From a virus: 64,000 bases of DNA. How positions within the stretch are numbered: the first letter of the stretch is position 1; every line of letters begins with the position of its first letter. Positions 6,001 through 37,418 of the stretch are shown here, in pieces. The position numbers were made by a program, and so were the translations under genes. The stretch spans positions 41,465-105,464 of IMG/VR virus record IMGVR_UViG_3300031952_000005. One strand, given 5' to 3'. Under the pieces are notes generated by a model. That model was given only the letters and a program-made list of their open reading frames with translations, was not told the DNA's origin and searched no databases.

Positions 6001-9000
6001 TGCCTGAGTTATTTATATCATTAACAGTTTCATTATTTAACCTTGCTCCTAACATAAATCTATATTGAGAAACAAGATTGCTATATTGTTCAAGAACTTG
6101 TTTTTCTTTACCAGGATTCTTTTTAATCAATTCATCAAGATTATATACTTTTTCAAGTAACAATGTTTGCGCTGTTTTAAATTTTGCATCAAAAGTTTGT
6201 CCAGATGTATTTTCAATAACATATTTTGTCATCATATATACCAACTGATTTTGTTCAGCTTTTAATAATGTTGTAGGTGATTGACTAACGCCAGATGATG
6301 AATACTTGTCGTTAATAATTTTTTTCAATCCAGGTATTAACTCATATGCTGCTTGTCCATCATATAATTCAGATTGTATTTGTTCTGATTTATAGTATCC
6401 TCTTTTGATATTCTTGTATGTACTGTCAACTAGATTACTTCTTTGAGTAAACATGTCAATCAGTTTTTTTAGTAACTCAAATAATTTTGCTACAAGACCT
6501 TGTGGTTTTGTATTTTTATTCATGTAGTTTTGAAAACCATCTGCAAGAATTTCTTCTGCTTGTAACTGAAACATTTTATCATACTCATACACATAGTTTT
6601 TTTCACTTGCAAATTTCTTTAATGCTGCAGGTGTAAATGCACTCTTGTGTTTTTTATTAGATGATACTGCATCAATTAATCTTGAACGTTGTTCTGGTGT
6701 CATCAAGTATCTAAACACACCATGAAATGCCTCGTGAAATACTACACCTTTTGACAAGATAGAGTTATTCAAATAGATAACTTTGTCTTTAAACATTCCT
6801 AGTACGTTACCATCAATACTTGACAAATCAATTATACTTGCAATTTCTTCTTGACTGATACCAAACTGAGGAAGATTTTCTTGTAACCATTGTACAGCAT
6901 TCTGTCTTTCTGCTTCTGTTTCTGTTTGTACTTCTGTATTAGAAATAGAAAACATTTCATTTTCAGGAATATCATCTATAGTAACATTATTACTGTCTGT
7001 TACAATAATAGGTTGAGCTTGTACAACAACAACGTTTTCTACAGGGTGCTGTGTAACTTCTAATGGACTTTTATTAGATAAAGGTATTCCAGCAGCAGTT
7101 GGAGATTTTGAAGTGATTACAAGACGATTTCTTGGTACATCTGATATATTAAAACTATTTACATTTCTTTCATAATCTTTTTTTGCTTGTGTGTCATTTA
7201 AATCTGAAAATACAACACGAGAAACTTGTTTACCTTCATCATCAATATCTACTACTAAATGTTTTGGTTCTGGATAGTCATTCATAAAGTTTTCAATAAA
7301 TCCAGGATATTTTTTACCATTTTCTAGTAACTGTCCAATAACTTTATTAATTATTAATTTTGAAAACCCTTCTTGTTGTTCTTTTATTGCATCAATTAAT
7401 TTTACTACATTAGGAGAAGAATTTGTATTACTATACATTTCATTTACCATGGAGTAAAACTTTGCAAGATCTTTTTGTTTGTTTAAATCTAATTTAGAAA
7501 ATGCAATATTTTCTGCAACAACATCTGCTACTAATGAAGCATTGCCTCTTAGTGTACTTGCAAATGCTATTATTTTTCCTTCTTCACCATTAACAATTTT
7601 ACCATCTACTACTCTTGGACCAAACGTAAAGTTAAAATCTGATTTGTTATCTTCTATAAAACCATACTTACTATCTTTTGATTTATTAGATGGTCGTACT
7701 TCAATTTGCAAATGTCCATTTTGATCACTTGCAAAATTTATAAATAATTCTACTTTTTTATTTGCTGATGCAAACGCTTTAAATTTGTAAACTTTTCTAT
7801 CAAATGATTGTAATTGTAATTTTCTATCAGCAGCATTTAATACATCAGATAACGTAGTTATAAATGTAGCAAACCCTTCTACTTGTGATAATACATTTAC
7901 AGGAGATACTGCTCGCCATCCATATGTACCATTATTATTAAACCTTATAATAATATGTCTCTGCGTATTATAACTACTACCTTTAAATATTTGATCTTTA
8001 ATGTATGAATCATCAAGTTTTATTCTAGAATCAAAATGTGAATTTACGTATTCTTCCTGTGTAACAATATCTTGTACATTACCTTGATTATCTTTTACAA
8101 CAATTCTTTCATTAGAATTTAGTGTATTTAATAATCTAAATTTACTTTGTTTTGCTTTTTCAGGATAGTTTCCATCCTTATTTTTTTTGTCAGAAAACTT
8201 AGTAAATGCAAATACTACATTACGCTCTTCTTCTTTTATAGTTTTACCAACCTGGTCAATAGTGGCAATAGTTAATTTACGTGATAAATTTGTTTCTTCT
8301 TCTATTACTTCAGAAAGATTTTTAATTTTTGTGTCACCTGTTTTTTGAGAACCAATGTTGTACTGAGAAAAGAATTGTTCTGTTACATCAACAGAATTTA
8401 CATCATCAGTAAACTGAGGTTCTACAATTGCTGATAGTTGCTCTTTAAAGTCATTGTATAACTCATAAGCGTTTTTCATTGTGTTAATATCGTTCTCATC
8501 TAAACTATCTGTAGTATTATCATTTAATCTTTTGATAGACAGTTCTTTAACTTTTTCAAGATGTACAGGATTTGAAAAATCTATTTTTTGTGAAGTGTTA
8601 TCACTATTTAAAAATACATAGTTATCTAATGGATACAAGTAAAATTTTTCACCAGTACCAATTATCTCACCAACTAATGCAAATTTACTTTCAGATTGTT
8701 GTGGTCTAGCAACTGTAATAACAGTTCCTTTTGAAGTTGATTTTAAATATTTTATTTGAGTTTCATTTTCAAATGTTTCATGTGTTCTGTTTGCAAGTCC
8801 TTTATATTTTGGATTAGTTGCAGCAAGTCCTTGTATTCTACTGATACGATCATCACCAACAGTACTTAATGAAACAGCATGTATTCTTACACCTGCTGAT
8901 GGAAAACCTGTTTTAGCAAGATTCTTTAATGCATCTTCAACTTTTTGTTGTAAACCAATTTCACTTCTTATAGGTTTAATAGTAAAGTTAGATGATATTC

Positions 9001-9799
9001 TATCCTGATAAAATTCTTGTTGTCCTTTGTTACTATTAGATGTATCATCATTACGTGCAGGTCTTTCTGTTAAAATATCTTCAGCATCAAGTTTAAATTC
9101 ATCACCATTTTCAGTTGTTATAAATAATCCTTCAGGTTTACTTGTTGCTTCAACCATGTTATTATCCTTAAATGTAACAAGAACAGTTTTTAATTCAGCA
9201 AGATCTGATATATCTCGTATTGCAATAAAATCAGATTGTTTATTTAAAGATTCTATAACAGAGGTCATTCGACTTAATAAAAAACTTTTGTTATCAAAAT
9301 TATTTATAACATCTCTTAGTTCAGATGTAATATAAATTAATATAGTATTTTTTGTTTCAAGATCTTCAAAATCATTTGTGTTAAAATAGTTATTAATCAT
9401 TGTGAGTACTTCTGTAAGATCATCACCAGTTATAACTTTTTTATTTTCAAGATTTAGTATTGCTCTTTGAATTGCTTCAACTTTTCCAATAGGTGTTTTC
9501 TTAACAGTATATAATGGAGATATTGAAGAAAGAAAATTATCAGCATCAGATAATAATATTTTTGCATCAATGATTTTTTCTGCATTTCCTACTTCATAAA
9601 ATGATTGATCTAATCCATTTAAACCAACATATATTTCTGCAATAGAAAATAAAGAAAGTGATTTTTCATAATTAGAAAGACCACTTTTTAAAATAAACTT
9701 TGCAGTATTGTCAAAGTTCTTATATGTTTCAGGATTTAGTTTGATTAAATTTCTTACAACTGATACAAATTTGTCAGTTGATAATTCACATTGTTTCAT
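1..9799 (-). CDS. Giant virion-packaged DNA-dependent RNA polymerase (crAss-like vRNAP) with N-terminal zincin domain; 3' end outside window (>3260 aa)
   Basis: ATG at 9799 (MKQCELSTDK). Same frame contains GVVFHEAFHGVF (~6715-6750), VFDGQS (~3205), LRIPTEDKRSM (~1835-1865) and catalytic GSDFDVD (DFDVD 1730-1744). No minus-strand fragments appear in the ORF track here, consistent with one open frame lacking a stop in the window. Confidence 0.93.
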   Translation of the reverse strand, partial: MKQCELSTDKFVSVVRNLIKLNPETYKNFDNTAKFILKSGLSNYEKSLSLFSIAEIYVGLNGLDQSFYEVGNAEKIIDAKILLSDADNFLSSISPLYTVKKTPIGKVEAIQRAILNLENKKVITGDDLTEVLTMINNYFNTNDFEDLETKNTILIYITSELRDVINNFDNKSFLLSRMTSVIESLNKQSDFIAIRDISDLAELKTVLVTFKDNNMVEATSKPEGLFITTENGDEFKLDAEDILTERPARNDDTSNSNKGQQEFYQDRISSNFTIKPIRSEIGLQQKVEDALKNLAKTGFPSAGVRIHAVSLSTVGDDRISRIQGLAATNPKYKGLANRTHETFENETQIKYLKSTSKGTVITVARPQQSESKFALVGEIIGTGEKFYLYPLDNYVFLNSDNTSQKIDFSNPVHLEKVKELSIKRLNDNTTDSLDENDINTMKNAYELYNDFKEQLSAIVEPQFTDDVNSVDVTEQFFSQYNIGSQKTGDTKIKNLSEVIEEETNLSRKLTIATIDQVGKTIKEEERNVVFAFTKFSDKKNKDGNYPEKAKQSKFRLLNTLNSNERIVVKDNQGNVQDIVTQEEYVNSHFDSRIKLDDSYIKDQIFKGSSYNTQRHIIIRFNNNGTYGWRAVSPVNVLSQVEGFATFITTLSDVLNAADRKLQLQSFDRKVYKFKAFASANKKVELFINFASDQNGHLQIEVRPSNKSKDSKYGFIEDNKSDFNFTFGPRVVDGKIVNGEEGKIIAFASTLRGNASLVADVVAENIAFSKLDLNKQKDLAKFYSMVNEMYSNTNSSPNVVKLIDAIKEQQEGFSKLIINKVIGQLLENGKKYPGFIENFMNDYPEPKHLVVDIDDEGKQVSRVVFSDLNDTQAKKDYERNVNSFNISDVPRNRLVITSKSPTAAGIPLSNKSPLEVTQHPVENVVVVQAQPIIVTDSNNVTIDDIPENEMFSISNTEVQTETEAERQNAVQWLQENLPQFGISQEEIASIIDLSSIDGNVLGMFKDKVIYLNNSILSKGVVFHEAFHGVFRYLMTPEQRSRLIDAVSSNKKHKSAFTPAALKKFASEKNYVYEYDKMFQLQAEEILADGFQNYMNKNTKPQGLVAKLFELLKKLIDMFTQRSNLVDSTYKNIKRGYYKSEQIQSELYDGQAAYELIPGLKKIINDKYSSSGVSQSPTTLLKAEQNQLVYMMTKYVIENTSGQTFDAKFKTAQTLLLEKVYNLDELIKKNPGKEKQVLEQYSNLVSQYRFMLGARLNNETVNDINNSGNAAYKGKVLPNKVKQYEADPLDNNLGQVSVEVLKKLVKKKTQELYSLLDGTGTAIDKNTLLKELAGENEKKSQVDEDFEDGEEISDDINIDEGFGEHNRLDSAPRQLRRFLGIISYEKEDTESGILFPRVIDGESIFGSLLKISADVKVDEIINNMQVTAKIYKEDGNFDAAADLQAIYNQLKEYTGMDTNGNPSTNKELYNMFIDVLHGTEIEYVMLNARLKTAEIEEAGNNIESFTLTDRVLQADALKKRRDMVSSMITTHAKKRTDPEYVTAVKRLVTLSENIINKKILIGSLLNANTVLETMTFELYNAFKDVGITLPKSLIRMSILAIDKIDNLNGALENIDKKTLDHYATNSAMIADKAYLEKQFFRSIKSIYDPVINESISSNAFGKTLDENNKNLGAFFNISTRFAKYILKYDATDLPSVFRNAAGKPVYRYTKYTPLILTGQSLRREGLKDTLRTDPYYDDFLEDFYNDNPLFGDLLKDKTSKQATIAKLLLDNTNISLFGGVAQMNNQTYKEGKTFGKLDKQSFHVMSILSFLQRTTVSSYETVVDEDGNITTPKTSIQTFLRTFDTLEASQTNFLITSLYQTYADKNGLVKDGKNLKIVNDLEGKVKQEFNRIKKEWNRREVNKKNFDDGSSNKLINNYNGVLSKDDKTRATVDSENLRAYNFNYLPYFFANAKNELLTSKLLEYAKDDKASFEDIDESTLADLRQGLNDFALEELNTYINTLKKLGVVNEKEESVKAIKKDPATGKVIEEEGYPVVFETKQPSLRYLTSSLIADTLKIDNNLAVSTTSVYANTKPNYNVQGVLESRADLNGLLADFFFNQWYNSLMVNELYTGDKAMNVKDGIDSTKRNKKFLASGSTMKEGKHTVAYLNTLFGYINEEHPNYGPFYSPQEVLDDIQIPDETIRKTIYENFKLNQKVFDGQSISSLFHQADMHESLGRLTPEILHSIIAKHYRELTEEEVLKMEKNKVVNNPKKTVTASRNIYHKQSESYIDRNDVSILIIPEGMTRDQVYDNLHDKYMTIYALRKQIQEHHKINKDGSVSSNIEELEQQIQKTYLEIHAKYEPNRIKLHKILNSMEYHNIDQIMDTEASKNATKLPVDYFAHADNDYLPLNISSLKVNNEDKYLQVETSGVHDTARFSVQGKILLPADLNYIEELANKRHAEAGTIMSSTERKAMNELGDSLLKYQESLYDISDSNLQSLQHFLRKGEDFDLGKVFDLIRENLEQQNAPSSVLKLFDVDAFGKPVHSPNLPGIRSMLEYYFFSLYSKHITDEKGSGFKNIHVSSFGYDVREDENGEVITTEEYRNNPGKYRNTKVRPLGVRIEAEYDDAGELVSKKYFVECILPKQFFRSQQQEDFFMENLREMFALRIPTEDKRSMIVLKVVDYIDSSHINSIIVPQFIHLLAGSDFDVDSLYGQTFAHYVNAVGDYAKYGNYNIYKSPAQGKFIEYIHYRADDENFRKLISAKRKALTETNNFSVSANALEVMYAMGYTQEDYIKAMTSGIYEELESYEEDLQDDIKQIKSEKKVVKQAFVQSIEDTENDPDDYLAKANRRKFGKEHFDLKTELDETYQDLKKTRDEKRRLRTFANGSLRIEAALQVFEKYGLPVDQANFDSNIVNHLSVLPIHQNKNLQAKIDILSNEAVFKNLYIHETSSTEYFESIVTGYGRDLDNFGPKSDPNTITSVIESKALGAAYKDMIGIAASLQKFLALASQYELELNSDNVIWKYASNDLQSDGSTVVTQNNLFKFGVINKNGQRVIMLNGVVLGIAADGMKKPIPAALGMNEINTGVTLAMIGIGLDPAFAFGFNFIPEINNAINKVQASRFAVSDSISTEFKFLTNELKTEMEDFIKNNGNAALLNELKDAGLITQDSFPGNVKINKENLMIDFQQNALNESRLESNTLTVEDIGFTVSSHIKGVTTLLSNEAQKVILLQLYKEQTQQTWGIRNAGSLVNLYKKINPTFISFDKLQRSINELRNGESMFTKES

Positions 9800-17302: not shown

Positions 17303-20300
17303 TTAATCTTCAAAAAAGTACAATGGTAATGCACCAAAATCAACTACTGTTCCACCATATTTTTTTATGTATCCACCGTATTTTCCTACTCTTTGTGGTA
17401 TTGCTTGTCCTGCTGCAACTATATCACGCATATTATTTCTTTGTGATGAACCTGTTCCAGAACCTGATTTACCAAGTTGACGTAACACTGCTTCGTGCGC
17501 TTGGTCAGAAGTCATTCCATTATTCATGTAGTCTTTTTTCATTGCTGCAAATTGAGGACCTGTAACATAACCATTACCAGATGCTACATCATTTGGATAT
17601 GCAGCATTTTGATATGGATCATATAAAAGATTACCATTCTCATCGTATGCCTCTCTACCTTGAGTAAAGTTAACATTACCATTTATACGATTAAATGCAT
17701 ACTGAGGAAACATACTTTCTAATTGATTAGTACGTTGCATATTAGTTGTACCATTATTAAACGCATCTATTACACCCCATTTTAAATCTCTACGTGCATT
17801 GTCGTATTGTTGATTTGCTGTTGCAGATTCTGCAAGATATTTTTGTTGAGCATTTGCATTCAAAAGTCTTTCTTGATTTACAATTTGCGCATTTCTTGGA
17901 AGTGCTTGATTAACAGTATTAACATTTCTATTTTCTACAGTACCAATAGTATTTGCAATTTGTCCAAGTCTTTGATTGGATTGTCCTACCATAGATGCAC
18001 CTGCAACATTACCAGCAGTTGAGTTATAAGCACCTTCTCTTGTAGCTGCTGCATCTTCTTGTAGTGCTGCAATTTGTCTAGCAGGATCTTCTAATACGTA
18101 AGGAGAAGTTTCAAGATTTACTTTTGCTAATCCTGGACCATACTTGCGCGCATCATCAGTCATTTTACCAGCAAAATAAACCTGGTCTTGTAACCACCAT
18201 GGTTTTCTTTCTTGTGGTCCCATCTGATTTTCCATAACAGGAATATCAAACTCTTGTTCTGCAGCAGGAGTGGTTTTTACAACTGGTGCAGGTTTTTTAC
18301 TGATACCTGGTAAGTTATAATTTTCAACACCTGGTACTAACGCACCTTCAATACCCATGTCAATGTACGGTTTGTTTCCAGAAACTGTTCCGATAGCAGC
18401 ATTTTCATATTCTAACAAATGTGTCATTGCTGGATTTGCTTTACCTTTTCCTGCAATCTGATCTTGTCTCCATTTAGCAGCACCACCTGGATATGCATTA
18501 ATTGCATCTGCGTGAATCTTCATGTATTCATCTAGTCCTCTTGTACCAGGTTTTATATCTTTATATAAAAATCCTGATTCTGGATCTATTTTATAACCTG
18601 TCTGAGAAGTTTGTGGTCCAACTGTTTTTTCTTTGTATCTAAGATCTTCTGGTAGATAACCAAAGTTATAACCTTTGTCTTGAACAGTTTTTGTCAGGTC
18701 AGCATCTTCAACATCATATAAAATTACTTGTCCTTTTGTACCATCACTATACACAGGTCTTTTGTTACCTGTCTTATTAGAGTACTCATATCCTACAACT
18801 GTTTTACCAGAACCTTGTACAGTACTTGGTACACCAGGTTGTGTTCCTTGATGTTTAGGTAAATACAATCCACCATCTGCAAACTCTTCATCTGTATAAA
18901 TAATATTATTATTAGGATTTGATGATTGCGCAGCTGCTTTTACTGGTACTTTAGATGCAACAGGTTTAACAGCATTGGTTACAACAGGTGCAGAAGCAAC
19001 TACTACTTGTGGTTGTTTTACAGTGGGAGCATTTTCTTTTACAACAGTTCTGACATTTCTTTCTTGTGCTGTACGAGTTGTATCAATTGGTGTTGGAGCA
19101 TAAACACTTTTAACTTTTGGTTGTGGTGTTACTTCAACATTTGTATTTTCATTTTCATCAACTGCATGTAGTCCTGCTTGACCAATTCTACTTGCAATTG
19201 AATACCCTTTTGATAAAAGTTGTTCAAATGGTATTTTACCAATATATTGTGCTAGAAATTTACCAGCTTGTTTTCCATATTTTGCAGTTAATTCAGCAGC
19301 TTGTGCAACGTATGGGGCTGCTACTTGTACTGCTTTACCAGTAAGTTTTACTGCACCTTTTCCTAATGCTACAGGTATTTCTGGATATATCATTGGATCT
19401 GTTGCAACATCTCCCCAGAAATGTTGAGTATCAGATACTGGTGAGTATCTTGATTTAGTATCCATGGGAGACTCATAGTAACCAGTTAACAACGAGTTAA
19501 TACCTTTTTGAGGAAGAGTAAACATGTTAGCAGCATAATCAAGTACACCACTAGAACCATTAAAAGGAATAAGTTCTTTTAATGCTTGTTTCATTCTTGG
19601 ATCATCATCAGGATTATTAAGACTCTTTTTGAAATCAACACTACTCCAGTTTTCTCCAACTCTATCCCAATATCCTGTTGATGTATCTGGACCAACTTTA
19701 TATGTATTTGTTGGTATGTATGGTTTTTCTTTTGCTACTTTTTTCTTACCAGGTAATTTTTTAGTTTGTGGTTGTTTGGTTGTACCAGCTCTCTGATAGT
19801 ATGCACTACCACCATAACGCATCTGACCTTCTTCTGCAGCTTCTTGTCCTTCCATCATTTCTTCTGGAGCACCTTGTTCTTGACCAGGTGCTTGTTGTCC
19901 TTGTAATCCTGCCATAACAGATTCTGCAATTGCAGGTATACCATCAGGAAATCCTTTCATAGATTCTTGTACCAATGCAAGCATACCAAGTTTCTCTAAA
20001 TTGTTTTCTAACATTTTAGATGCAGTACGTTTACTTATTTGATCATAATTATTATCCTTTAGAATATTCATATAGTTATTCATAGGATACTTATTTGCAA
20101 TTTTTGCAGGAGTTACACCACCTTTGTCAAAACTAGTAATACCAAATATAGAAAGTACTTCTGGATCTTTAATTTTTAACTTCTTTGTATCAGAGAATAT
20201 AAAAGAACCTGGTGCAACATTAAGAGGTACTCCACCTCCAGTATGTCTTTTACCAACAATTTTATTATGTTCTAAAAAACCATCATTGTTTATATCACCA

Positions 20301-20485
20301 ATTACAGTTTCACCACCTTCAGCTTCTATATTTGCTTCTTCACGTGGTACTGCACTGATAGTGTTTTTGACATTACTATCTTGGTTAATTGGATTTACTT
20401 TAATGTATAAATCATTTCTATCAACTAAACTATAGTTACGTTGATCACCATTTTTTGGTAGTTGTTTTATTCTAATGTTGTACAT
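17303..20485 (-). CDS. Virion cargo protein 1-like (1060 aa), modular with GG linkers
   Basis: N-terminal ANIEAEGGE...GKRHTGGGVPL...FIFSD domain typical of crAss-like cargo proteins; Q/N/A-rich C-terminal helical part. Confidence 0.65.
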   Translation of the reverse strand: MYNIRIKQLPKNGDQRNYSLVDRNDLYIKVNPINQDSNVKNTISAVPREEANIEAEGGETVIGDINNDGFLEHNKIVGKRHTGGGVPLNVAPGSFIFSDTKKLKIKDPEVLSIFGITSFDKGGVTPAKIANKYPMNNYMNILKDNNYDQISKRTASKMLENNLEKLGMLALVQESMKGFPDGIPAIAESVMAGLQGQQAPGQEQGAPEEMMEGQEAAEEGQMRYGGSAYYQRAGTTKQPQTKKLPGKKKVAKEKPYIPTNTYKVGPDTSTGYWDRVGENWSSVDFKKSLNNPDDDPRMKQALKELIPFNGSSGVLDYAANMFTLPQKGINSLLTGYYESPMDTKSRYSPVSDTQHFWGDVATDPMIYPEIPVALGKGAVKLTGKAVQVAAPYVAQAAELTAKYGKQAGKFLAQYIGKIPFEQLLSKGYSIASRIGQAGLHAVDENENTNVEVTPQPKVKSVYAPTPIDTTRTAQERNVRTVVKENAPTVKQPQVVVASAPVVTNAVKPVASKVPVKAAAQSSNPNNNIIYTDEEFADGGLYLPKHQGTQPGVPSTVQGSGKTVVGYEYSNKTGNKRPVYSDGTKGQVILYDVEDADLTKTVQDKGYNFGYLPEDLRYKEKTVGPQTSQTGYKIDPESGFLYKDIKPGTRGLDEYMKIHADAINAYPGGAAKWRQDQIAGKGKANPAMTHLLEYENAAIGTVSGNKPYIDMGIEGALVPGVENYNLPGISKKPAPVVKTTPAAEQEFDIPVMENQMGPQERKPWWLQDQVYFAGKMTDDARKYGPGLAKVNLETSPYVLEDPARQIAALQEDAAATREGAYNSTAGNVAGASMVGQSNQRLGQIANTIGTVENRNVNTVNQALPRNAQIVNQERLLNANAQQKYLAESATANQQYDNARRDLKWGVIDAFNNGTTNMQRTNQLESMFPQYAFNRINGNVNFTQGREAYDENGNLLYDPYQNAAYPNDVASGNGYVTGPQFAAMKKDYMNNGMTSDQAHEAVLRQLGKSGSGTGSSQRNNMRDIVAAGQAIPQRVGKYGGYIKKYGGTVVDFGALPLYFFED

Positions 20486-20523
20486 AAACTTTTGAAGTTT
20501 AAAGTTAAAAATGATAAATCTCT

Positions 20524-20539
20524 TACATTTAGAATTTAC
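20524..20539 (-). promoter_or_regulatory. Candidate late promoter GTAAATTC-W4-TGTA
   Basis: GTAAATTCTAAATGTA upstream of 20485; abuts a TATATTTG element at 20539-20546. Confidence 0.55.
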
Positions 20540-20581
20540 AAATATAATTTGTTTTTTCCTATTTTGTTACAGAGTTTGTTA

Positions 20582-22195
20582 TTAATTGATGAATTCAATT
20601 TCTGCACCATCTTGCATAAGTTGCAATAGTTCATCTTCTGATACTTGATATTCACCACCTTGTGCAAATGACTTTTTCATAAAACCACCATATCTGGCAC
20701 TTTGAATAGGTGTTGTCATACCTGGTTGGAAATTTTGAGATGGTCCAACATTAAGTGTGTAATCACCAAATGGATTTGGACTATTATACGCCATACCAAA
20801 ATCAGTATTTCCAGTACGTCTTAACATGTCTTCATATTCTCTTTGTTGTTTTTCCGCTTCTCTTGAACGAATAGTATTGGCAAATGCACCTAACCCTGCT
20901 AGTGATTTTTGTGCATACTCCATTCCATTAAAAGAGTTGTTATTTATGTTATTATTTCTTCTTGCATCACGAATATATTTTTTCTCTAAAGGATTTGTCT
21001 CATAAAGATCATTAGGTTCTTCTGTAATTAATTGCTGTTCATCTAACATGTATTGGTCAGGTACATTATTATTTCCTTGCATTGGCGCAAATTGTGATTC
21101 ATCAATAGTAGAATCTTCATTAGCAGGAATTGCAGGTTTTGGAAATTGTATTTTATTGTTATTAAAAGCATTCAATTGATTGCTGGTCATGTTATCTGTA
21201 TTGAACGGTTGTCCAAAAGAACGTATAGCATTATTATATTGATTATATGCATCAGCACCTTGCGCTCTTGCAGAAGCATCTACTGTTGTATTTTGTGGAT
21301 ATTCATTTGGATCAGGTGTGTTATTTTGTTGTGCGTATGGTGGTCCTTGAGGATTACTAAATCCAAACTGTGCTTGTGGTAAAACACCACCATAAGCAGC
21401 AACCATAGAATCATACTCACCATTGTACTGTGGTTGTTTTGTAAAATCAGTATTTCTAATTTTGTTATAGTTTATTGAAGGAGCAGGTGTAAGGTTTGGA
21501 GCAGGAATATTATTCATATTATTAATATTTCTATTTCTGTTATAACCTAAGTCAGTACTAAAGTCCACAACATTTCCTAAACTGTTATTTGTATTTTGTA
21601 AAATATTACTACCAGGTTTTATTTTGTTACCAATCCATTGTGCAGCTTTACCATATCCTAAAGCAGCACCTGCTGTAGCACCTACAAGTCCTAGTACACC
21701 AGAAGCGTCATTTAACAGTTTTCCAAATGGTCCTTTTCTTTCTGAAGTAAGCGCGTTGATTGTAGGATTAATATATGGAATACCTTGTCCAAATCCAACT
21801 GCACCACGTGCACCATAAGCACCACCACCTTGATAAGACTCCATCTCTTGAGACTCATCATTATCTGCATATGACATTGGAGCTTCTTGTTGCTGAGGTT
21901 CTTGCATTTGTTGTTGTTGCATTTGTCCAGCACCTTGTTGCACTTCAGCAACCATAGTCTGAATTGCTTGTTGCTGACCATTCTCATCAAGTTCCTGTAA
22001 TTTTTGTACAATCATTTTGGGATCAACACCATGTATCTTTGCATACATAGTAATTAACTGCATGATCTGTTCTTGCTCTCCTCCTTGTTGTGCTTTATGT
22101 AAACCACCATGTTCTAAAACAGTTAATGGATTAGTAAAGTATTCGTATGGTAATACAAATTTATTTTTTTCGCATTCTGTACACTTCTTATTCAT
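20582..22195 (-). CDS. Modular Q/N-rich virion cargo protein (537 aa)
   Basis: Low-complexity Q/N/P segments, a hydrophobic GVLGLVGATAGAALGYG helix, several xxxGG linkers. Confidence 0.55.
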   Translation of the reverse strand: MNKKCTECEKNKFVLPYEYFTNPLTVLEHGGLHKAQQGGEQEQIMQLITMYAKIHGVDPKMIVQKLQELDENGQQQAIQTMVAEVQQGAGQMQQQQMQEPQQQEAPMSYADNDESQEMESYQGGGAYGARGAVGFGQGIPYINPTINALTSERKGPFGKLLNDASGVLGLVGATAGAALGYGKAAQWIGNKIKPGSNILQNTNNSLGNVVDFSTDLGYNRNRNINNMNNIPAPNLTPAPSINYNKIRNTDFTKQPQYNGEYDSMVAAYGGVLPQAQFGFSNPQGPPYAQQNNTPDPNEYPQNTTVDASARAQGADAYNQYNNAIRSFGQPFNTDNMTSNQLNAFNNNKIQFPKPAIPANEDSTIDESQFAPMQGNNNVPDQYMLDEQQLITEEPNDLYETNPLEKKYIRDARRNNNINNNSFNGMEYAQKSLAGLGAFANTIRSREAEKQQREYEDMLRRTGNTDFGMAYNSPNPFGDYTLNVGPSQNFQPGMTTPIQSARYGGFMKKSFAQGGEYQVSEDELLQLMQDGAEIEFIN

Positions 22196-22245
22196 AACAC
22201 AAATTTTTAGTTACATGTTTATTATCACATGATTACATTACTAAT

Positions 22246-24264
22246 TTACAATTTATTTCTTGGATTTATTATGTTTTCTCTATAATATTCATCAAAGGGT
22301 ACAGGACCTCCTACCACTTTTCTTTTCATAAAATCTATAACAGTTTTACCAGGTGCAAGATATTTTGCCATTGATTGTTCATGTGGTAACTTGTTATTGA
22401 CATTTGCATATAACATTCCTCCTAGTTCTTGTATTGCCATTCTATCAAATCCTGTCATATCACTGTAAGGACTTGACAAGTCACCACCATTTTTTTGTTG
22501 TTGTAATGTTGCTGCTCCTACTGCTGCAGGAACCATTGCACCAAGTCCTATTTTATTTAAAGATTTTAATAATGCATTCATATCAAAATCTTCAACTTTT
22601 ACTCCTTTTAAATATTCATGTCCTGTATTCATTAAACTTTGCAGTTTGTTTTTGATTTCAGGAATATCTTTTTCTGTATAAACTCTGTTTCCTTTTATAT
22701 CACCAAGAGATGCTCTTAATTCATTTTGTACTGCAAATGCTTCTTCAGCAGGCATTCCAAAATCATTATTTTTTATCATAGGTTCCCAAGCTGCACTAGC
22801 AATTTTTTCTTCTTGCGGAGTTGCTTTTAATCTTATAGATCTACTATGGGTTGCTTCATGCATTGCATCAGTATAAGCAGATGTTGTTGGAATATTTGAT
22901 GTATTTGCTCTAAATTTATCAACCATTACTACGTCATTCATATCCCCATGATTATTTGCAAGATAGTTACCTCGTGAATTTCCTAACTGTTCTGTTACAT
23001 TTTCAGGATAATCTAAATTACCATTGTTTCTAAATGCCTGATATTCATTGTTTAACACAGGATCATCAATAAATCTTGCTTGTTGATTAGAAACATTAAA
23101 TTCTTGATTAGGTCTAAACTCTTGTAATTTTTGTCTATTAAAAGGTGAGTTTGAAAAAGCTGTAGCATCTGCATTAGCTCTTGCTAACTCTTGTTCTGCA
23201 AGTAACGCTTCTTTTTGTAAAAATGTAGGCGCAGATGATGTTGATATAACAGGTGCTTTTTTACCAAATCCAAACAAGTTTAAATCTATATTACTTGCAT
23301 TACCCATATTTCTTTTAGCATTAAATGCTGTTATATATGGATCTTCTACATATGGTGTGTATGTGTTTATATTTTTAGGTGCAGGAATAACATTACCATT
23401 AGCATCATAAAATATTGTATTTTCTAATTCTTTTGCAGCAGTATATTTACTACCCATAACATTTCTAAACACTTCTTCTTCTCTACTAATACCTGCTTCT
23501 CCTACCTGAGAAAGATATGGTTCTAATCCTTTTGCAGATTCTGCTACATATGGTCGATATTTACCAATTGATTCAGCAATTGAAGGAACTCTGTATTCTC
23601 CTGTAAACGGTAAAACTGTTTTTGAGTTTACAAACTGATTTGCTGCGGAACCAAGTTCTGTTAATGCTTTTTTAACAGGTCTTGCTACATATCCTAATGC
23701 TTGACTAACATAAGGACTTATTACTTCACCTACTGCACCTGCTACCAGTGGTTCACCAATTGCTTCAACGTAAGGCGTATACGAGTCTTCTTGTTGTGCT
23801 CTCAAAGGTGCTTGACCTAGATTTGCTGCCATTTTACCAATCCAACTTGCAGGATTTATGTAATCATCAACCACATTAGGTTCATCAGAAACTCTAAATT
23901 GTGATTCTAAACCTTTTGCAGATTCTGCTATGTTTTCTCTTGTCCAGTTTTCAGGATTTAAAGACACTGCAAACTTTTGATTTAAAGGATTTGCACTAGA
24001 TTTTTTTCTATCAATACCTCTTTGTACACCTGGAACATTTTGTATAGTTCCTTGTTTATCAATTAATGCTTGTACTCTTCTTTGTTCTATCTGTTGCGGT
24101 GTAAGTTGTATACCTACTTTTGGTTTAAAGTTAGGTGTGTTATCTTTAGTAGCAACTGCTATCATTCTTTCATCTCGAGGTACTATTTTACCAAGTTGTG
24201 CTTTTGGTAATTGATTATTAGAAAGAAACTTTTCTAAAATAAACATGTTTCCTTGACGTGCCAT
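22246..24264 (-). CDS. Modular cargo protein with zincin-like metallopeptidase domain (672 aa)
   Basis: AMHEATHS (HExxH) followed by EEAFAVQNELR; GG linkers. Confidence 0.6.
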   Translation of the reverse strand: MARQGNMFILEKFLSNNQLPKAQLGKIVPRDERMIAVATKDNTPNFKPKVGIQLTPQQIEQRRVQALIDKQGTIQNVPGVQRGIDRKKSSANPLNQKFAVSLNPENWTRENIAESAKGLESQFRVSDEPNVVDDYINPASWIGKMAANLGQAPLRAQQEDSYTPYVEAIGEPLVAGAVGEVISPYVSQALGYVARPVKKALTELGSAANQFVNSKTVLPFTGEYRVPSIAESIGKYRPYVAESAKGLEPYLSQVGEAGISREEEVFRNVMGSKYTAAKELENTIFYDANGNVIPAPKNINTYTPYVEDPYITAFNAKRNMGNASNIDLNLFGFGKKAPVISTSSAPTFLQKEALLAEQELARANADATAFSNSPFNRQKLQEFRPNQEFNVSNQQARFIDDPVLNNEYQAFRNNGNLDYPENVTEQLGNSRGNYLANNHGDMNDVVMVDKFRANTSNIPTTSAYTDAMHEATHSRSIRLKATPQEEKIASAAWEPMIKNNDFGMPAEEAFAVQNELRASLGDIKGNRVYTEKDIPEIKNKLQSLMNTGHEYLKGVKVEDFDMNALLKSLNKIGLGAMVPAAVGAATLQQQKNGGDLSSPYSDMTGFDRMAIQELGGMLYANVNNKLPHEQSMAKYLAPGKTVIDFMKRKVVGGPVPFDEYYRENIINPRNKL

Positions 24265-24268
24265 AGTA

Positions 24269-27200
24269 TTATCTTTTCTTTTTAGGTTTAACAGTTACCT
24301 CATTAAGTTCCATTGCACCATCTTCATTAGGTGTCATTTGTCTATACAAATTATTTCTCCAGTTTTGTTCTACTTTGTAAGGATAACTTCCAGGATCTCT
24401 TTGGTATTTTTGTCTCATTTCATCTTCACCACTTTCTGTAAATGCACCTTCTGTAAAATTACTCATTGTTCCTTCATTAAATGGTATATAATCATCATCA
24501 TTTTCCCAAGTAGTTCCAGATGCAATAGAAGAGAATTGATTTCTTAAATAAGGAGAATATCTACCAACACCATCATCTAATGCATTGCTATTAACATCAG
24601 TATATAAATCATCTGTTTGGAATCCTCCAGATGTTGTACCATCTGCATTGACCATCTCTGGTCTAGTAAATCCAAATAAGTTTTTACTAAGTTTATTTTG
24701 TTCACCCCAGTTCTCTAAAACTTGTTTATCTTGTAAATCCATTGCAGTCATAAGAGGTAATACTTTTTCCATATTATACAAATCATTTGGTGATTGTATA
24801 CCAAACTTTTGTTTTAACTCAGTAGGAATACTATTAAACTTAATCTGTCCAGGTCCTACTGATAATCTTTTACCACCACCTACTGATGTTAAAACACTTT
24901 CTGCAATGTTTTCTGTAAGTGAACCTAATCCTTTTCCACGTGATGTAGTCCAGTTGTTTTCAGCACCTAGTTCACCAAATACATTTAGTAATGAATCTTG
25001 TATTTCTTCTTTAGACTTACCTGTCTTCTTAACAAGATCATTTACTTTATCATTATCATTTGCAAATAATAAAAACTTATCCATAACATTTTTAGTAGTG
25101 TTATTGTAGTTTTTTGCATTAGGTGATATACTCCATTTATATGACGCTTTAGATGCAGATTCTTTTTTTACAAAATCTTTTTTGTCTTCATAGTTTTGTT
25201 TTTCTTCAGGTGTTAATCCTAGAGGATTTGCATCATTGTATGGATTAACTTTATAAATAGATGCAGAAGGTTCTGTTGATGTTCTTGCACGATCAAGTAA
25301 ATCTGCTACATCACTTTCAGAATATGTTCTTTCTGTTTTCCAAAAATTATCAAAAAATCTAAGTTCACCATTTGCATTTTTACCTAAGTAAATCTGAGCG
25401 TGTCCTGGATAAAAATTACCTTGTTCATTTTTACGATTGTTACGTTGCAACATATCACCTGGTTCAAGATTAGTTATGCCTTTAACACCATATCCATTGT
25501 TTGCAGTAAATCCATACTCTTTTGCATTCTTAGAAAAACTAGTGTTAGACCAATCTATGTTTTTCATTACACCTGCTTCTTTGTACACATCACAAACTCC
25601 ACCAATACAACTGTTAGCAGATTGGTCAAGTGCTACTGCAGCTTTTTTTAAATCATCAGGTACAGCAATATACTTACCAGTTTTGATTCTGTCTTCTGCA
25701 ATTTGCACAACTCGCTGTGCCATTTCTTTAGTGTGAACATTTCTGTCAGAAGGATTAATAACTTCTACTTCTGGTGGTGCCACCATGCTATCCTGTCTTT
25801 GTTTTTTTAGTATTTTTTCTATTAATGCAAGATTCTGTTGCATAGAACCATCTGTTAATCCTTGTGCTCTAGCAGTACTCCATGGTTGACCTGTTAGTTT
25901 TGTGTATTGTTCTGCTACACCATTTCCTGTTGTACCACCAATGTCATAACGCTGGTGTTCACCACCATATTTGTTAGGAGAAACTGTTTTAAAAGCATCA
26001 ACACCTCCAAAGCTTTCCATATTACCCATTCTATTTAAAAGATCAGGTGTCAATATTTCATCACTCATAATAAGAGATTTCAAATAATCAGGATTAGCAG
26101 TTCTAACTTTACCTGTTCTTTCGAAAATTGTATTATTCATTTGATTTTGAAAATCTTGAGCATCAAATGCTTTTGCATTATTCCAGTCAGAAGCCAGTGT
26201 TTTTTTAAACATTGTTGGATTTGTAATATCTTGATGTCCAATATCGCCAAATAAACTTAATTTAGATTTAGTATTTTGATATTGCTCAGGAGTCATAAAT
26301 TTTTCTTGAAAACTGCGAGGTACTAGTTCAGGAAATTTTTTGTCAAATACTATATCAGCATCACTTAAAGGATATTCATCTGCAAATTCAAAATACTTAT
26401 TCCAATAATTTTTTTCTTTTGCTATTTTATCAGCAAGTTCTTTGTCAGTATAAAAATCTTTTTCTGCAACTAATGGTTTTTTACCATATGTTGCTTTAAC
26501 AATTTGTTCATCAACTGCATTGTTAAATGGTTCTACTTCTGAAATACCTCCTTTGTTTGGTAACTCATCCATATATTTCCATTCACCTGTTGGAAAATTT
26601 TGTGTAGCATTACTATCATAAAATACTTTCTCACCGTCAATATTTTCAATAGCATTTGCAAAATCATCTCCTATTTTAGGTATTTTACCTTTGACCATTC
26701 CTTTTGTAAAAAACGGTAGTTTTCTTAAAGAACCTAATTTTGAAAGAGCTTTTTCTTTTGTTAATATTCCTGCACCAATTAAGTTTGCAGGATCTGCAAA
26801 AACATTTAAAAGAGTGTCATCAAGATTTCTACCAAATGCACTAGGACTATCAAACCATCCTTCCTTGGTATTATGTCCCCATGCTTCAGAAGGATCTTGA
26901 ACTTTACCAGTTGTTGCATAAGTAAGAGCATGCTGTCCAACAGATGCAGGGTATTTTACTACACTACCTATTGCTCCTAATAAACCATCATCTGCATTAT
27001 CTTTTAAATACTTATCTCTAGACTGTTCCCAGAATCCTCTAGGTCTTTTATAGTTATTCTGTATAGTAACTTCATCAAGTAGTATTGGAGAACGTTGTCC
27101 ATCTTCTGTTACAACCTCACCTCTGTTATATGCTTTTTCATATTCTGGTGTACCATATTTTACTGTTCCTGCTTTTTGATACTTATTACTAACAGACATT

Positions 27201-28285
27201 ACATCTGCATTCTTAAACCAGTTACCTGTGTAGTTTCCACCATTTTGCATTATCTTATTTTCATTACCACATTTGTGACAAGTACTAACATCATTACCAC
27301 CATCTGCAGCTTTCCATAACCAACCACAATTAGAACACTTAATAGTCTTATTAAGTAATCCACCATACTTTGCAATAGGCATTTCAGATTGATCATTGTT
27401 CTGAGCAATGTTATTCATTAACCATATAAGATCTTCATCAGAATAATTTTCTAATGCTCTGTTTTTACGACCAGTATTTTTTAACTGATTAAGATGTTCT
27501 TGTGTAAACTCTTCATAACCAGGATTATAGATACCAAGTTTTGCAGCTTCATATTGTAATGCTTTTTGATCAGCATAATTTTCATCTGCTCCTCTTGACA
27601 TTTTATTATTTTTGTTTCTTGATTGTAGTTCATTATAATCATATTGATTATAATATGGTACATTACTTCCAATGATAGAATCACTTGAGTCTAATACAGA
27701 ATGTCCAAACTCATGTGCAAGTACACTGTCATTATCATTTGGTAAAATAGATTTATCTTTTGTAACCCATTGTTTAAGATCTCTATTAGGTGAATGATGT
27801 ATAGTATTACTACCAGTATTATAATAAGAACCATCTCTATTTTCATCAAGTTTGTATTTAGTTCTGTTTACATTTGCTTGTCTTCGTTCTAATACTTTCT
27901 CAACATCTTTGTAACCTGACTTTTCTAAATTCTCTTTATATAAAGGTGATTCTATATATTTATTAAACCATGTTTTTACATTATTAAATTCTTCTTGTGG
28001 TCCACCTTCTTGAGCAATAGGCATTTCTACTACACGCGTACCAGGATACTGATATTTTTGTCCAGGAAACATTTGTTGCTTATTACCAAATTCATCCATA
28101 CCTATAAGAGGAGTACTTACGCCTTGCATAGTTATAGATGTACCTTGTGGTGTACCATAAATAGTATTACTAGGATTGTTTCTGTAAGGAGAATCATCCT
28201 TGTAACCTTGCATAGAAATATCCTGTTTTACTTTTTCATTTTGTCCAGTTATGAACTTCATCAAAATTTCTCTATTACCACTCAT
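24269..28285 (-). CDS. Modular cargo protein (1338 aa): zincin, zinc ribbon, NlpC/P60-like amidase and lysozyme-like domains
   Basis: LAHEFGHS...DENYAD; CSNCG...CHKCG; NSCIGGVC...PGD...GHAQIYLG; GAENNW...SVGPGQI. Confidence 0.65.
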   Translation of the reverse strand: MSGNREILMKFITGQNEKVKQDISMQGYKDDSPYRNNPSNTIYGTPQGTSITMQGVSTPLIGMDEFGNKQQMFPGQKYQYPGTRVVEMPIAQEGGPQEEFNNVKTWFNKYIESPLYKENLEKSGYKDVEKVLERRQANVNRTKYKLDENRDGSYYNTGSNTIHHSPNRDLKQWVTKDKSILPNDNDSVLAHEFGHSVLDSSDSIIGSNVPYYNQYDYNELQSRNKNNKMSRGADENYADQKALQYEAAKLGIYNPGYEEFTQEHLNQLKNTGRKNRALENYSDEDLIWLMNNIAQNNDQSEMPIAKYGGLLNKTIKCSNCGWLWKAADGGNDVSTCHKCGNENKIMQNGGNYTGNWFKNADVMSVSNKYQKAGTVKYGTPEYEKAYNRGEVVTEDGQRSPILLDEVTIQNNYKRPRGFWEQSRDKYLKDNADDGLLGAIGSVVKYPASVGQHALTYATTGKVQDPSEAWGHNTKEGWFDSPSAFGRNLDDTLLNVFADPANLIGAGILTKEKALSKLGSLRKLPFFTKGMVKGKIPKIGDDFANAIENIDGEKVFYDSNATQNFPTGEWKYMDELPNKGGISEVEPFNNAVDEQIVKATYGKKPLVAEKDFYTDKELADKIAKEKNYWNKYFEFADEYPLSDADIVFDKKFPELVPRSFQEKFMTPEQYQNTKSKLSLFGDIGHQDITNPTMFKKTLASDWNNAKAFDAQDFQNQMNNTIFERTGKVRTANPDYLKSLIMSDEILTPDLLNRMGNMESFGGVDAFKTVSPNKYGGEHQRYDIGGTTGNGVAEQYTKLTGQPWSTARAQGLTDGSMQQNLALIEKILKKQRQDSMVAPPEVEVINPSDRNVHTKEMAQRVVQIAEDRIKTGKYIAVPDDLKKAAVALDQSANSCIGGVCDVYKEAGVMKNIDWSNTSFSKNAKEYGFTANNGYGVKGITNLEPGDMLQRNNRKNEQGNFYPGHAQIYLGKNANGELRFFDNFWKTERTYSESDVADLLDRARTSTEPSASIYKVNPYNDANPLGLTPEEKQNYEDKKDFVKKESASKASYKWSISPNAKNYNNTTKNVMDKFLLFANDNDKVNDLVKKTGKSKEEIQDSLLNVFGELGAENNWTTSRGKGLGSLTENIAESVLTSVGGGKRLSVGPGQIKFNSIPTELKQKFGIQSPNDLYNMEKVLPLMTAMDLQDKQVLENWGEQNKLSKNLFGFTRPEMVNADGTTSGGFQTDDLYTDVNSNALDDGVGRYSPYLRNQFSSIASGTTWENDDDYIPFNEGTMSNFTEGAFTESGEDEMRQKYQRDPGSYPYKVEQNWRNNLYRQMTPNEDGAMELNEVTVKPKKKR

Positions 28286-36091: not shown

Positions 36092-37360
36092 TTATACTGA
36101 ATAAGTAAACTCAGATATAAGTCCTTTGTTTATTTCGTGTATGTGTATTATTGCAGACCTTTGATTTCCAGTCCATTTGTTATGATAATGATAATAATCT
36201 GAAGATGTAAGCGCAGGAATAATACGTGTAACAAATCCTTGTTCTTCATTCTCAGTAATTACTTCTTTTGTTTTTCTACCATGATAGTGTCCTGTGTATA
36301 GCATTCTATGTTCAGAGTTACCCCATTCTGTAGAAAATTCTACTGCATATACTAATGGATTATTTTTAGATGATACATCACCATGTTCAACAGCAATCAT
36401 GTTTTTACCATACATAATGACTTTGCGTTCTGCATACTCTACGTTAAATGTAATATCAGTATCTTTTTTAAATACTTGTGATGATGCATGGATCATATGA
36501 TATGAAGATAGTCTATCGTGATTACCTGGTATAAACACAACCTCTAAGTTCTCACAAAACTGTTTAAGTTTATCAACAGCGTTACATACTGCGTCAAACG
36601 CTTTTAAATATGCTTTAGTTGCCACTTCTGAGTTTTCAACAGGTGTTCCTTTTGTAGTAGTACCATCAAAAGTATCCATGTTAAGTGTATCAGGTCCTAT
36701 TATTAATATAATTTTATCTAAATGATAATTTCTGTATGCTTTACCAACAAGATATGTAAGTGCAATATCCATTACTTCTGCCATGTTTTCATTACCTGGT
36801 TTACCAAAATGTAAATCTTGTAATGAAATAACCCCGCACACTTTCTCAGTTGATACTGAATTTAAATGTACAGGGTTTACTTTAGGAAAAACAGGTAACT
36901 TATAAGTTAATAGTTCTTGTAGAAATGATTTTTGTGCGATTAGTTCAGTAGGCAATCTTGTTATTAGTGCAGATACTAACCATTTGTTATTTTGTTCCTT
37001 ATTCCAGAACTGAGACAACTTCCATTTTGTAGTATCAATACTTAGTAAAGCAATAATTTCATCAGGTGTTTTTGGTTCTGTACTTGATATACCAGTAATC
37101 TTACTAGTACCTGTTTCAAGATTTTGATGAACTTCTGTTACTTTTGAATTTGTTTCTTTTTGTGGAAACAACTTATTGTCAATACTATGAAAAAAAGAAT
37201 CATCCATCACTTCATCATCAGACATGTTTTTTATTACATCTAATGTTTCTTTTTTAATAAACATGTATTCATGTAGTGATAACTCTAATCTGTCTGCTTC
37301 TTTTTGATTTGAATTTTTTCTTGTTAATCCTTGGTAAATTAATTTACTAATTAATTTCAT
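36092..37360 (-). CDS. Calcineurin-like metallophosphoesterase
   Basis: DLHFGK, GPD, GNHD, EHGD and GHYH motifs. ATG at 37360 preferred because the track's TTG start overlaps a TATATTTG promoter element. Confidence 0.85.
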   Translation of the reverse strand: MKLISKLIYQGLTRKNSNQKEADRLELSLHEYMFIKKETLDVIKNMSDDEVMDDSFFHSIDNKLFPQKETNSKVTEVHQNLETGTSKITGISSTEPKTPDEIIALLSIDTTKWKLSQFWNKEQNNKWLVSALITRLPTELIAQKSFLQELLTYKLPVFPKVNPVHLNSVSTEKVCGVISLQDLHFGKPGNENMAEVMDIALTYLVGKAYRNYHLDKIILIIGPDTLNMDTFDGTTTKGTPVENSEVATKAYLKAFDAVCNAVDKLKQFCENLEVVFIPGNHDRLSSYHMIHASSQVFKKDTDITFNVEYAERKVIMYGKNMIAVEHGDVSSKNNPLVYAVEFSTEWGNSEHRMLYTGHYHGRKTKEVITENEEQGFVTRIIPALTSSDYYHYHNKWTGNQRSAIIHIHEINKGLISEFTYSV

Positions 37361-37418
37361 GTTTGAACATTTTGAGTTATACAAATATATTATTAAAATA
37401 AAAAACTACATAAAATAT

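Follow-up and report, generated by a model that had tools for sequence, protein, structure and literature searches.

What does a short peptide do that recurs at the joints of large phage proteins: is it recognised by a partner, cut by a protease, or merely carried along with the parts that it connects? The question is raised by a 64,000-nt stretch of DNA (hereafter the window), part of the 105,464-bp IMG/VR record IMGVR_UViG_3300031952_000005, in which four consecutive minus-strand open reading frames (ORFs) of 1338, 672, 537 and 1060 aa, laid out as originally described, carry about 20 copies of a motif built around a pair of glycines (Table 1). Judging by gene position, these ORFs are probably counterparts of the cargo (ejection) proteins of the Crassvirales, the most abundant phages of the human gut, and would be carried in the virion and injected; we refer to them as the cargo proteins. 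An original prediction, made from the DNA alone, had taken the motif for a maturation cleavage site and/or a capsid-docking tag that lets unrelated effector domains be strung together. Our analysis showed that the motif is a conserved seam between exchangeable modules, an in-frame joint at which these are gained, lost, shuffled, fused and separated.

The motif is enriched in the cargo proteins

The cargo set (four ORFs, 3607 residues) was compared with 2000 shuffles and with the rest of the window (15,296 residues). Plain GG is not enriched, with 31 copies in the cargo proteins and ~25 expected from composition. The triplet YGG, however, occurs seven times against 1.17 in shuffles (1/2000 shuffles reach seven), and [KR]YGG six times against 0.14 (0/2000). 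No YGG is present in the remaining 15,296 residues of the window nor, over the whole 105,464-bp genome, in any ORF of at least 40 aa outside the cargo ORFs. A broader pattern, [AYFMLIV][QKAR]xGG or [KHQR][AH]QxG, was counted 14 times in the cargo proteins against 2.5 in shuffles (0/2000), and three times in all other proteins. The consensus reads hydrophobic/aromatic-[Q/K/A]-x-G-G, here often in the form [K/R]-Y-G-G, and is frequently followed by a second copy of the type x-L-P-K-x-Q-x-G(G). The motif is thus enriched over shuffled sequence, as the original prediction requires.

The core of the list of copies on which the prediction was built proved sound. The variants with a single glycine (YQRAG, LPKHQG and PQAQFG) were rightly included, because the relatives carry the full KAQxGG form at those positions. 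The list is slightly over-inclusive in that AADGG, at residues 326-330 of the 1338-aa protein, falls within the zinc ribbon and is probably no seam. As had also been stated, the motif is scarce in the 881- and 1604-aa proteins and in the shell proteins; the 4014-aa protein is likewise poor in it. The 47-aa basic ORF near the major capsid protein gene (46331-46474) does contain MRMGG, in its C-terminal sequence ..MRMGGKTKKC, a lone occurrence indistinguishable from chance.

The motif lies between folded modules

From N to C terminus, the 1338-aa protein consists of an N-terminal domain, a seam, a gluzincin metallopeptidase module, a second seam, a zinc ribbon, a third seam, hydrophobic and unknown modules, a double seam and a block that resembles soluble lytic transglycosylases (SLT) or lysozymes. 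An AlphaFold2 model of aa 88-312, computed from a 32-sequence alignment, has a mean predicted local distance difference test score (pLDDT) of 83.7 and is folded from model residue 9 to 207, with both flanking seam peptides, MPIAQEGG and MPIAKYGG, below 50. The fold is that of a gluzincin: the best matches in a wide search with VIA-align were M13 peptidases (Z 9.3-8.6) and anthrax lethal factor (Z 7.5), and a Foldseek search of the model against the PDB gave no match at E<=0.001. Residues H104, E105, H108, E148 and D152 of the model are invariant in the 32 sequences; the HExxH motif with its downstream Glu is intact. The proposal that the motifs sit at domain boundaries is thus borne out where domains can be recognised, the zincin being folded between two disordered seams and the zinc ribbon lying between two seams. 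Both zincin-flanking seams are encoded by a 27-nt direct repeat (22/27 identical).

The remaining modules gave fewer matches. Pfam scans of the four whole cargo proteins and of nine sub-regions found nothing significant, with a weak M78 hint for the zincin, which is also the sole match of the cargo proteins in a PHROGs scan, to a 'tail protein' family. The C-terminal block of the 1338-aa protein (aa 785-1338), unmatched in the Pfam scan, is probably a lytic transglycosylase or lysozyme-like wall hydrolase, an assignment drawn from a model-based resemblance and offered as a lead only. The HEATH region of the 672-aa protein was not detected by a hidden Markov model of the 1338-aa zincin (E 0.48), a result that lends no support to paralogy of the two zincins. 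For the 537-aa protein AlphaFold2 returned mostly coil (pLDDT 35), and this model adds little. Within the window, only the 672- and 537-aa proteins have N-terminal leaders that end in the motif.

Relatives exchange modules at the motif

A search with the 537-aa protein found 39 homologues. In a 16-sequence alignment of this family the invariant columns concentrate at the motifs and in the 23 residues that close the protein beyond the last GG; the motif columns stay invariant in relatives down to ~40% identity, while their flanks carry insertions and deletions. Two cassettes of ~40 aa are gained or lost precisely between GG motifs, and the C-terminal seam is present in one to three tandem copies. 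Near-invariance of the C terminus beyond the last GG extends to the 1060-aa protein, where it covers 15 aa. The sole cysteines of the 537-aa protein, a CxxC pair at aa 5-8 (window 22172-22183), are invariant in 16/16 aligned homologues.

Alignment-based scans were made for related loci, five of which came from viral contigs and five from metagenome contigs. In nine related loci each cargo protein has 2-5 copies of [YF]GG, and the homologues of the muzzle, 881-aa and 1604-aa proteins have almost none; the density of GG is 9.8 per 1000 aa in cargo proteins versus 3.5 elsewhere. Immediately ahead of GG, Tyr shows a five-fold enrichment, and the consensus downstream reads V-L-P-K-x-Q-x-G. The giant proteins that flank the cargo genes are colinear among these loci at 67-79% identity, and the cargo proteins are mosaic. 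In some relatives the 1338- and 672-aa proteins are fused into one (1910, 2162 or 1488 aa) with their blocks re-ordered, and in others the same region is divided differently (1746+856 or 1841+883 aa). Internal ends of BLAST blocks fall at most five residues from GG in 22 of 69 cases against 5.8 expected (0/5000 randomisations reach 22), a count to be read with the reservation that the loci are related, so that the ends are not independent, and that conserved motifs naturally anchor alignments. Cassettes, fusions, splits, re-orderings and block ends all fall at the motif, as expected from the payload swapping that had been predicted. Outside these loci, the proteins in the cargo position of Leptolyngbya phage Lbo-JY46 have four QxGG sites, one of which precedes an acidic C-terminal tail resembling that of the 537-aa protein.

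The seam accompanies the zincin across a wide family

An exhaustive search with the zincin module yielded 321 representative clusters at 50% identity, in which the module occurs at any position of proteins of 186-2433 aa. In 134 distant representatives xAQxGG or x[YF]xGG stands on either side of the domain; among them the motif has the consensus [YFMA]-[QA]-x-G-G-x-[LIV], and the spacing between copies is preferentially 6 or 9 residues. Relatives carry one to three further HExxH modules. Stand-alone zincins, which begin with M..QxGG or M..WLDKY..GG, keep a short N-terminal leader ending in GG (GG within 20 aa in 50/150, 22 expected), and single-domain zincins end in ..P-x-A or ..Y-G.

A WLDKY-like tag was found in 52 copies among 150 proteins of the family, 17 of them lying within 12 residues of the N terminus and 22 within 12 of the C terminus, versus 0.5 expected at each end. 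It is therefore terminal in 39/52 occurrences, often at both ends of one protein. Many representatives start with M(x0-4)WLDKY..GG and end with ..LTNFTNYNK..GGWLDKY(x0-3). The same tag at both ends suggests, on sequence grounds, end-to-end pairing or a shared receptor. The 64-kb window contains no WLDKY tag.

The same pattern in crAss001 gp45

The structurally studied relative by position is gp45 of crAss001, of which two pieces have been resolved, residues 214-245 in the tail barrel and residues 425-552 on the portal (Bayfield et al., 2023, PMC10172136; PDB 7QOG). This protein contains four copies of A[FY]GG against 0.1 in shuffles, and the copies bracket both pieces ordered in the cryo-electron microscopy structure: the first piece begins four residues after AYGG (207-210), and the second, whose first residues are AFGG-W (425-429) themselves, stops eight residues short of another AYGG (560-563). 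Since residues 425-552 were modelled as one chain, the seam AFGG-W is uncut after GG.

Modules are lost from motif to motif here too. Among near-identical natural variants of gp45, lengths of 729-742 aa are found in about one sixth of the listed cluster representatives. These lack 110 residues, with a deletion exactly from AFAE-GGG to IAKD-GG, and further variants lack residues 261-329 (69 aa), from AF/AEGG to K/AFGG. The cultured phages PhiCrAssBcn1-3 have the 732-aa form, which leaves 69 residues between the two ordered pieces. According to the authors of the structure, the barrel-bound and portal-bound pieces are ~420 Å apart (PMC10172136). As 69 residues at 3.8 Å each span at most ~260 Å, we infer that the two pieces cannot in general form one uncut chain. 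The deletion in PhiCrAssBcn1-3 challenges the published picture of a single gp45 chain spanning tail and capsid, and offers a ready-made natural experiment.

We also re-analysed the published matrix-assisted laser desorption/ionization (MALDI) peak lists of the crAss001 gel (Shkoporov, 2018) over bands 1-10, with fragments <58 kDa falling outside this range. Band 3 matched gp47 and gp50, band 4 gp49 and gp44, band 5 the portal, and bands 6-9 gp26, gp22, gp25 and gp23. At 70-100 kDa gp45 did not rise above chance, even though the portal, comparable to it in size and copy number, was seen there; as negative evidence this is weak. The muzzle protein gp44 (150 kDa) was also matched in bands 1-2 of this reducing gel, at >300 kDa, which suggests oligomers resistant to sodium dodecyl sulfate (SDS).

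No detectable sequence homology links the cargo proteins to crAss001 gp44-50: phmmer (E 0.08 or worse), blastp and hhalign (probability below 1%; 0.7%) gave insignificant scores. The gp45 family PF25725 (crAss_CARG1) had no match at E<=1 in the six-frame translated genome, where strong divergence could hide a relative.

What the seam may do

The reading that we favour, tentatively and at slightly less than an even chance, is that the seam is a recognition element that stays uncut and serves as hinge and docking handle. The cargo proteins are built in the manner of 'polyvalent' proteins, as strings of independently folding, swappable modules (gluzincins, a zinc ribbon, a probable wall hydrolase and hydrophobic segments); the seam, lying in a disordered linker, would come into use when the cargo loads beside the portal and threads out via the tail, and the conserved tails after the last GG may act as terminal docking peptides. 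This is consistent with the ordered, uncut AFGG-W of the solved crAss001 structure and with the invariant tails after the last GG, and the WLDKY tag, being mostly terminal and often at both ends, suits a handle and not a cut site. The confinement of the motif to cargo proteins, its invariant columns, the mosaic architecture, the zincin folded between disordered seams, the GG leaders of stand-alone zincins, the seams that bracket the ordered pieces of gp45 and the deletions in PhiCrAssBcn1-3 also speak for it. We infer that the seam has been retained because something reads it. With these facts the capsid-docking half of the original prediction agrees no less well than cleavage. Of that interpretation, the stringing together of modules and their exchange at the motif held good; maturation cleavage at the motif was not demonstrated, in view of the uncut AFGG-W, the terminal WLDKY tags and the mismatch with known cleavage consensus sequences.

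Some observations weigh against a handle. No binding partner has been identified, no structure has the seam touching portal, ring protein or capsid, and ~20 seams per genome exceed the need of any single docking site. Others do so by giving the seam the look of a cleavage site as well, namely its conservation upstream of GG, its disordered linker and the adjoining endopeptidase modules. The 69-residue connector of gp45, too short for ~420 Å, is more easily explained by a cut chain or by different copies of the protein at the two sites, and the lack of gp45 above chance in the 70-100 kDa bands is a minor point in the same direction.

It is accordingly possible, if rather doubtful, that the seam is a site of proteolytic maturation and that polyproteins are cleaved at GG or next to it, either within the capsid or once ejected. 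The agents would be the gluzincins borne on the cargo itself, which make the main rival to a handle, or the order-wide HEAFH zincin of the giant RNA polymerase (RNAP)-associated protein, and the outcome would be the release of separate effectors and the removal of leaders and tails. Such cutting would suit seams that are disordered linkers, conserved chiefly N-terminal of GG and often doubled, next to a module with the fold of a gluzincin endopeptidase and an intact HExxH+E (M13 Z 9.3, lethal factor Z 7.5), accompanied in relatives by one to three additional HExxH modules. It would also suit the leaders ending in GG that stand-alone relatives keep, the modules that are fused in some phages and separate genes in others, the PhiCrAssBcn1-3 connector, too short for one chain to reach from the tail barrel to the portal, and the published gel lists, in which no gp45 is detectable at its full-length position. 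Moreover, cleavage of giant crAss polyproteins with a role for the zincin was proposed by Drobysheva et al., and autoprocessing by a metallopeptidase (MPTase) was proposed for polyvalent proteins (PMC5512222).

Against cutting, cleavage has been measured in no crassvirus and the crAss001 papers report none, while AFGG-W (425-429) of gp45 was modelled as a continuous chain. The WLDKY and GG tags stand at the extreme termini of many relatives, where a cut would remove 0-5 residues. The virion RNA polymerase (vRNAP) of phage N4, which has a comparable zincin, is packaged uncut, and crAss001 and Lbo-JY46 have the seam but lack a zincin of the type in the 1338-aa protein. The motif is also unlike the known consensus sequences of GG proteases. 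Pfam and PHROG scans of the structural block found no GG-specific cysteine protease, the replication half not having been scanned protein by protein, and no prohead protease was matched among the ORFs between portal and major capsid protein, where a remote homologue is possible. A seam that is a cleavage code read by the cargo-borne metallopeptidases, making self-processing packaged polyproteins whose changeable effectors (wall hydrolase, peptidases, membrane modules) are set free in the capsid or the host, seems to us the less probable account. If it were true, maturation and delivery would proceed without a dedicated prohead protease, in a scheme distinct from those of T4, phiKZ, adenovirus and African swine fever virus (ASFV).

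A third account, which we regard as improbable, is that the seam has no reader and is a flexible Gly-Gly linker that rides with mobile cassettes, an evolvability scar at which in-frame recombination between copies gives viable chimeras. It would accommodate the deletions from motif to motif, the cassette insertions and deletions, the block ends at the motif, the 27-nt direct repeat (22/27) encoding the zincin-flanking seams and the high mobility of the modules, with the zincin at any position in proteins of 186-2433 aa. The DNA repeats are short and imperfect, however, and conservation acts at the protein level, across phages with ~30% identical portals and throughout the 321 clusters (50% identity). 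What speaks against a passive linker is that the motif is kept at the N-termini of single-domain proteins, which need no linker there, and that particular residues on either side of GG are conserved besides the glycines. Finally, a pattern due to chance or composition in Gly-rich, low-complexity proteins is scarcely credible and is refuted by the shuffle and conservation tests: although plain GG stands at its compositional frequency and some listed sites are weak, 0/2000 shuffles reach the counts of [KR]YGG and of the broader pattern, alignment columns are invariant and the same pattern recurs in independent clades. Ribosome skipping of the 2A type was also considered and dropped, as the motif lacks NPGP; to our knowledge it has no bacterial precedent.

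Comparison with known systems

The internal proteins of phage T4 carry a capsid-targeting sequence that is cut by the gp21 prohead protease, and the inner-body proteins of phiKZ are cut by gp175. In both, as here, a short conserved peptide is common to otherwise unrelated proteins that are packaged and injected, and the payloads are hypervariable. Their sites, however, end in Glu (L/I-x-E; S/A/G-x-E), are N-terminal or linked to a propeptide and are served by a dedicated serine prohead protease, whereas the seams described here are internal, numerous and based on Gly-Gly, and no such protease was found in the structural block.

Cutting next to a glycine pair is known from the cysteine proteases adenain of adenovirus and pS273R of ASFV, which process GG-X maturation sites, and from the C39 peptidases that cut double-glycine leaders. 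The likeness lies in a Gly-Gly pair with conserved residues before it; the difference is that the enzymes reading these sites are cysteine proteases from clans CE and CA, none of which was detected in our scans of the structural block. The adenain consensus has its hydrophobic residue two positions before GG. The seam departs from this consensus, (M/I/L)-x-G-G↓x, in having Q/K/A at position -2 and its hydrophobic or aromatic residue at -3 or -1.

Encapsulin cargo-loading peptides are short conserved terminal peptides, preceded by a flexible linker rich in Gly, by which cargo is brought into a shell of the HK97 fold. The tails of the 537- and 1060-aa proteins are candidates for a similar arrangement, a conserved short terminal peptide past a flexible linker; their sequences are unrelated to the encapsulin peptides, and it is by analogy that they may be considered shell or portal binders.

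In architecture the cargo proteins match the polyvalent proteins, described in phages and conjugative elements, for which autoproteolytic release of modules was proposed (Iyer, Burroughs, Anand, de Souza and Aravind, 2017, PMC5512222). These are large multi-module proteins delivered with DNA and extensively mosaic, and the module met most often in them is a zincin-like metallopeptidase, at times in multiple copies. Correspondingly, the 1338-aa protein has several unrelated effector-type domains that are reshuffled in relatives, and a zincin with HExxH and a downstream Glu. Unlike the present case, with its specific seam peptide, PMC5512222 defines no junction or cleavage motif (neither 'linker' nor 'glycine' occurs in its text) and omits crassvirus cargo. 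In polymorphic toxins, too, a short conserved peptide, such as the pre-toxin VENN of CdiA, bounds payload cassettes exchanged by recombination (Zhang et al., 2012, PMC3482391), but these are secreted bacterial proteins with one junction each, before the C-terminal toxin, whereas here there are many seams per putative virion cargo protein.

With crAss001 gp45 (PF25725) the cargo proteins share a gene position between the muzzle and vRNAP genes, a Gly-rich hydrophobic segment, recurrent GG seams (in gp45 A[FY]GG, bracketing its ordered pieces) and the loss of modules from motif to motif in natural variants. They differ in the lack of detectable sequence homology and in number, one such protein there against four here with enzyme modules; the motif is not mentioned in PMC10172136. 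We found no paper that describes the motif: a search for the motif string gave noise, and searches on crassvirus processing gave no report. The seam pattern is real and, apparently, undescribed in the literature.

The seam marks every module joint in crassvirus cargo proteins and is conserved out to cyanophage and freshwater relatives. It explains how injected payloads are swapped in frame, and could serve as a guide to module boundaries in the thousands of giant phage proteins that lack annotation. It also provides a concrete, mutable handle on how crassviruses load, thread and possibly process megadaltons of cargo protein.

Genome setting and features of the locus

According to the ORF calls, all large genes of the window are on the minus strand. 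Their order is terminase, portal, major capsid protein, IHF-like protein, fibre proteins, crAss ring protein (PF24228) and a 1791-aa muzzle-like protein, followed by the four cargo ORFs and then by the 881-, 1604- and 4014-aa proteins. With a muzzle-like gene before them and vRNAP-like genes after them, the cargo ORFs match the crAss001 cargo genes gp45/gp46 by position. The 4014-aa protein combines a crAss001 gp47-like region, with a HEAFH zincin, and a gp50-like region, with a DFDVD RNA-polymerase motif, and its only GG (FGG, aa 1776) is placed between the two.

The nearest portals in GenBank are those of Lbo-JY46 (31% identity) and an epsilon crAss-like phage (28%), and from these low values the source is a distant, uncultured crAss-like phage, probably of a freshwater habitat. 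Among GenBank phages, megablast with the region and tblastn with the 537- and 1060-aa proteins found nothing.

Table 1. Cargo proteins, seams and neighbouring genes, in window coordinates
Feature	Position	Strand	Remarks
Cargo protein, 1338 aa	24269..28285	-	modules from N to C given in the text
Seam MPIAQEGG, 1338-aa protein aa 88-95	28001..28024	-	N-terminal flank of zincin; pLDDT <50
Gluzincin metallopeptidase module, aa 96-294	27404..28000	-	HEFGH at 191; invariant downstream Glu and Asp
Seam MPIAKYGG, aa 302-309	27359..27382	-	C-terminal flank of zincin; pLDDT <50
CxxC...CxxC zinc ribbon, aa 317-339	27269..27337	-	between seams 305-309 and 345-350; weak Zn-ribbon Pfam hints
Seam IMQNGG, aa 345-350	27236..27253	-	BLAST blocks of relatives stop here
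Double seam NKYGG-EHQRYDIGG, aa 770-784	25934..25978	-	junction of homology blocks 528-775 and 774/779-1336
C-terminal block, 1338-aa protein aa 785-1338	24272..25933	-	resemblance to SLT cluster (ESM Atlas 0.93)
Cargo protein, 672 aa	22246..24264	-	N-terminal leader ending LPKAQLG, HEATH motif (aa 469), three C-terminal xxGG sites
Degenerate seam LPKAQLG, end of 25-aa leader of 672-aa protein	24190..24210	-	aligns with internal AQYGG seams of fused relatives
Cargo protein, 537 aa	20582..22195	-	mostly disordered (predicted), Gly-rich hydrophobic segment, three double seams, invariant 23-aa C-terminal tail
Double seam LEHGG-LHKAQQGG, 537-aa protein aa 27-39	22079..22117	-	insertion point of the two ~40-aa cassettes in relatives
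Double seam AAYGG-VLPQAQFG, 537-aa protein aa 266-278	21362..21400	-	Y268, G269, L272 and Q276 invariant
Double seam ARYGG-FMKKSFAQGG, 537-aa protein aa 500-514	20654..20698	-	up to three tandem copies in relatives
C-terminal tail past last GG, 537-aa protein (EYQVSEDELLQLMQ..EIEFIN)	20585..20653	-	nearly invariant; candidate docking peptide
Cargo protein, 1060 aa	17303..20485	-	three double seams; conserved C-terminal tail (..DFGALPLYFFED)
Double seam MRYGG-SAYYQRAG, 1060-aa protein aa 222-234	19784..19822	-	conserved N-terminal block (82-86% identity) stops just past seam
Double seam FADGG-LYLPKHQG, 1060-aa protein aa 535-547	18845..18883	-	
Tandem seam GKYGG-YIKKYGG, 1060-aa protein aa 1034-1045	17351..17386	-	followed by conserved 15-aa C-terminal tail (17306-17350)
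4014-aa giant protein	2-9799, ORF continuing upstream	-	HEAFH aa 1022 (~6722-6736), DFDVD aa 2686
Major capsid protein	47895-49547	-	structural block
Portal	50958-53705	-	structural block
Terminase	53737-55950	-	structural block

Three further genes of the window were recorded. The protein in the fibre position (37419-39641) has two spondin-type thrombospondin repeats (Pfam TSP1_spondin E 1e-15, TSP_1 E 5e-4), which is unusual for a phage. The protein at 39675-41330 combines a Fibrobacter succinogenes major domain (E 3e-31) with an Lcl C-terminal domain (E 4e-12) and, from these domain matches, is probably a receptor-binding or adhesin module. Amid the tail gene block, at 36092-37384, lies an SbcD-like DNA repair exonuclease (phrog_704, E 1e-45).

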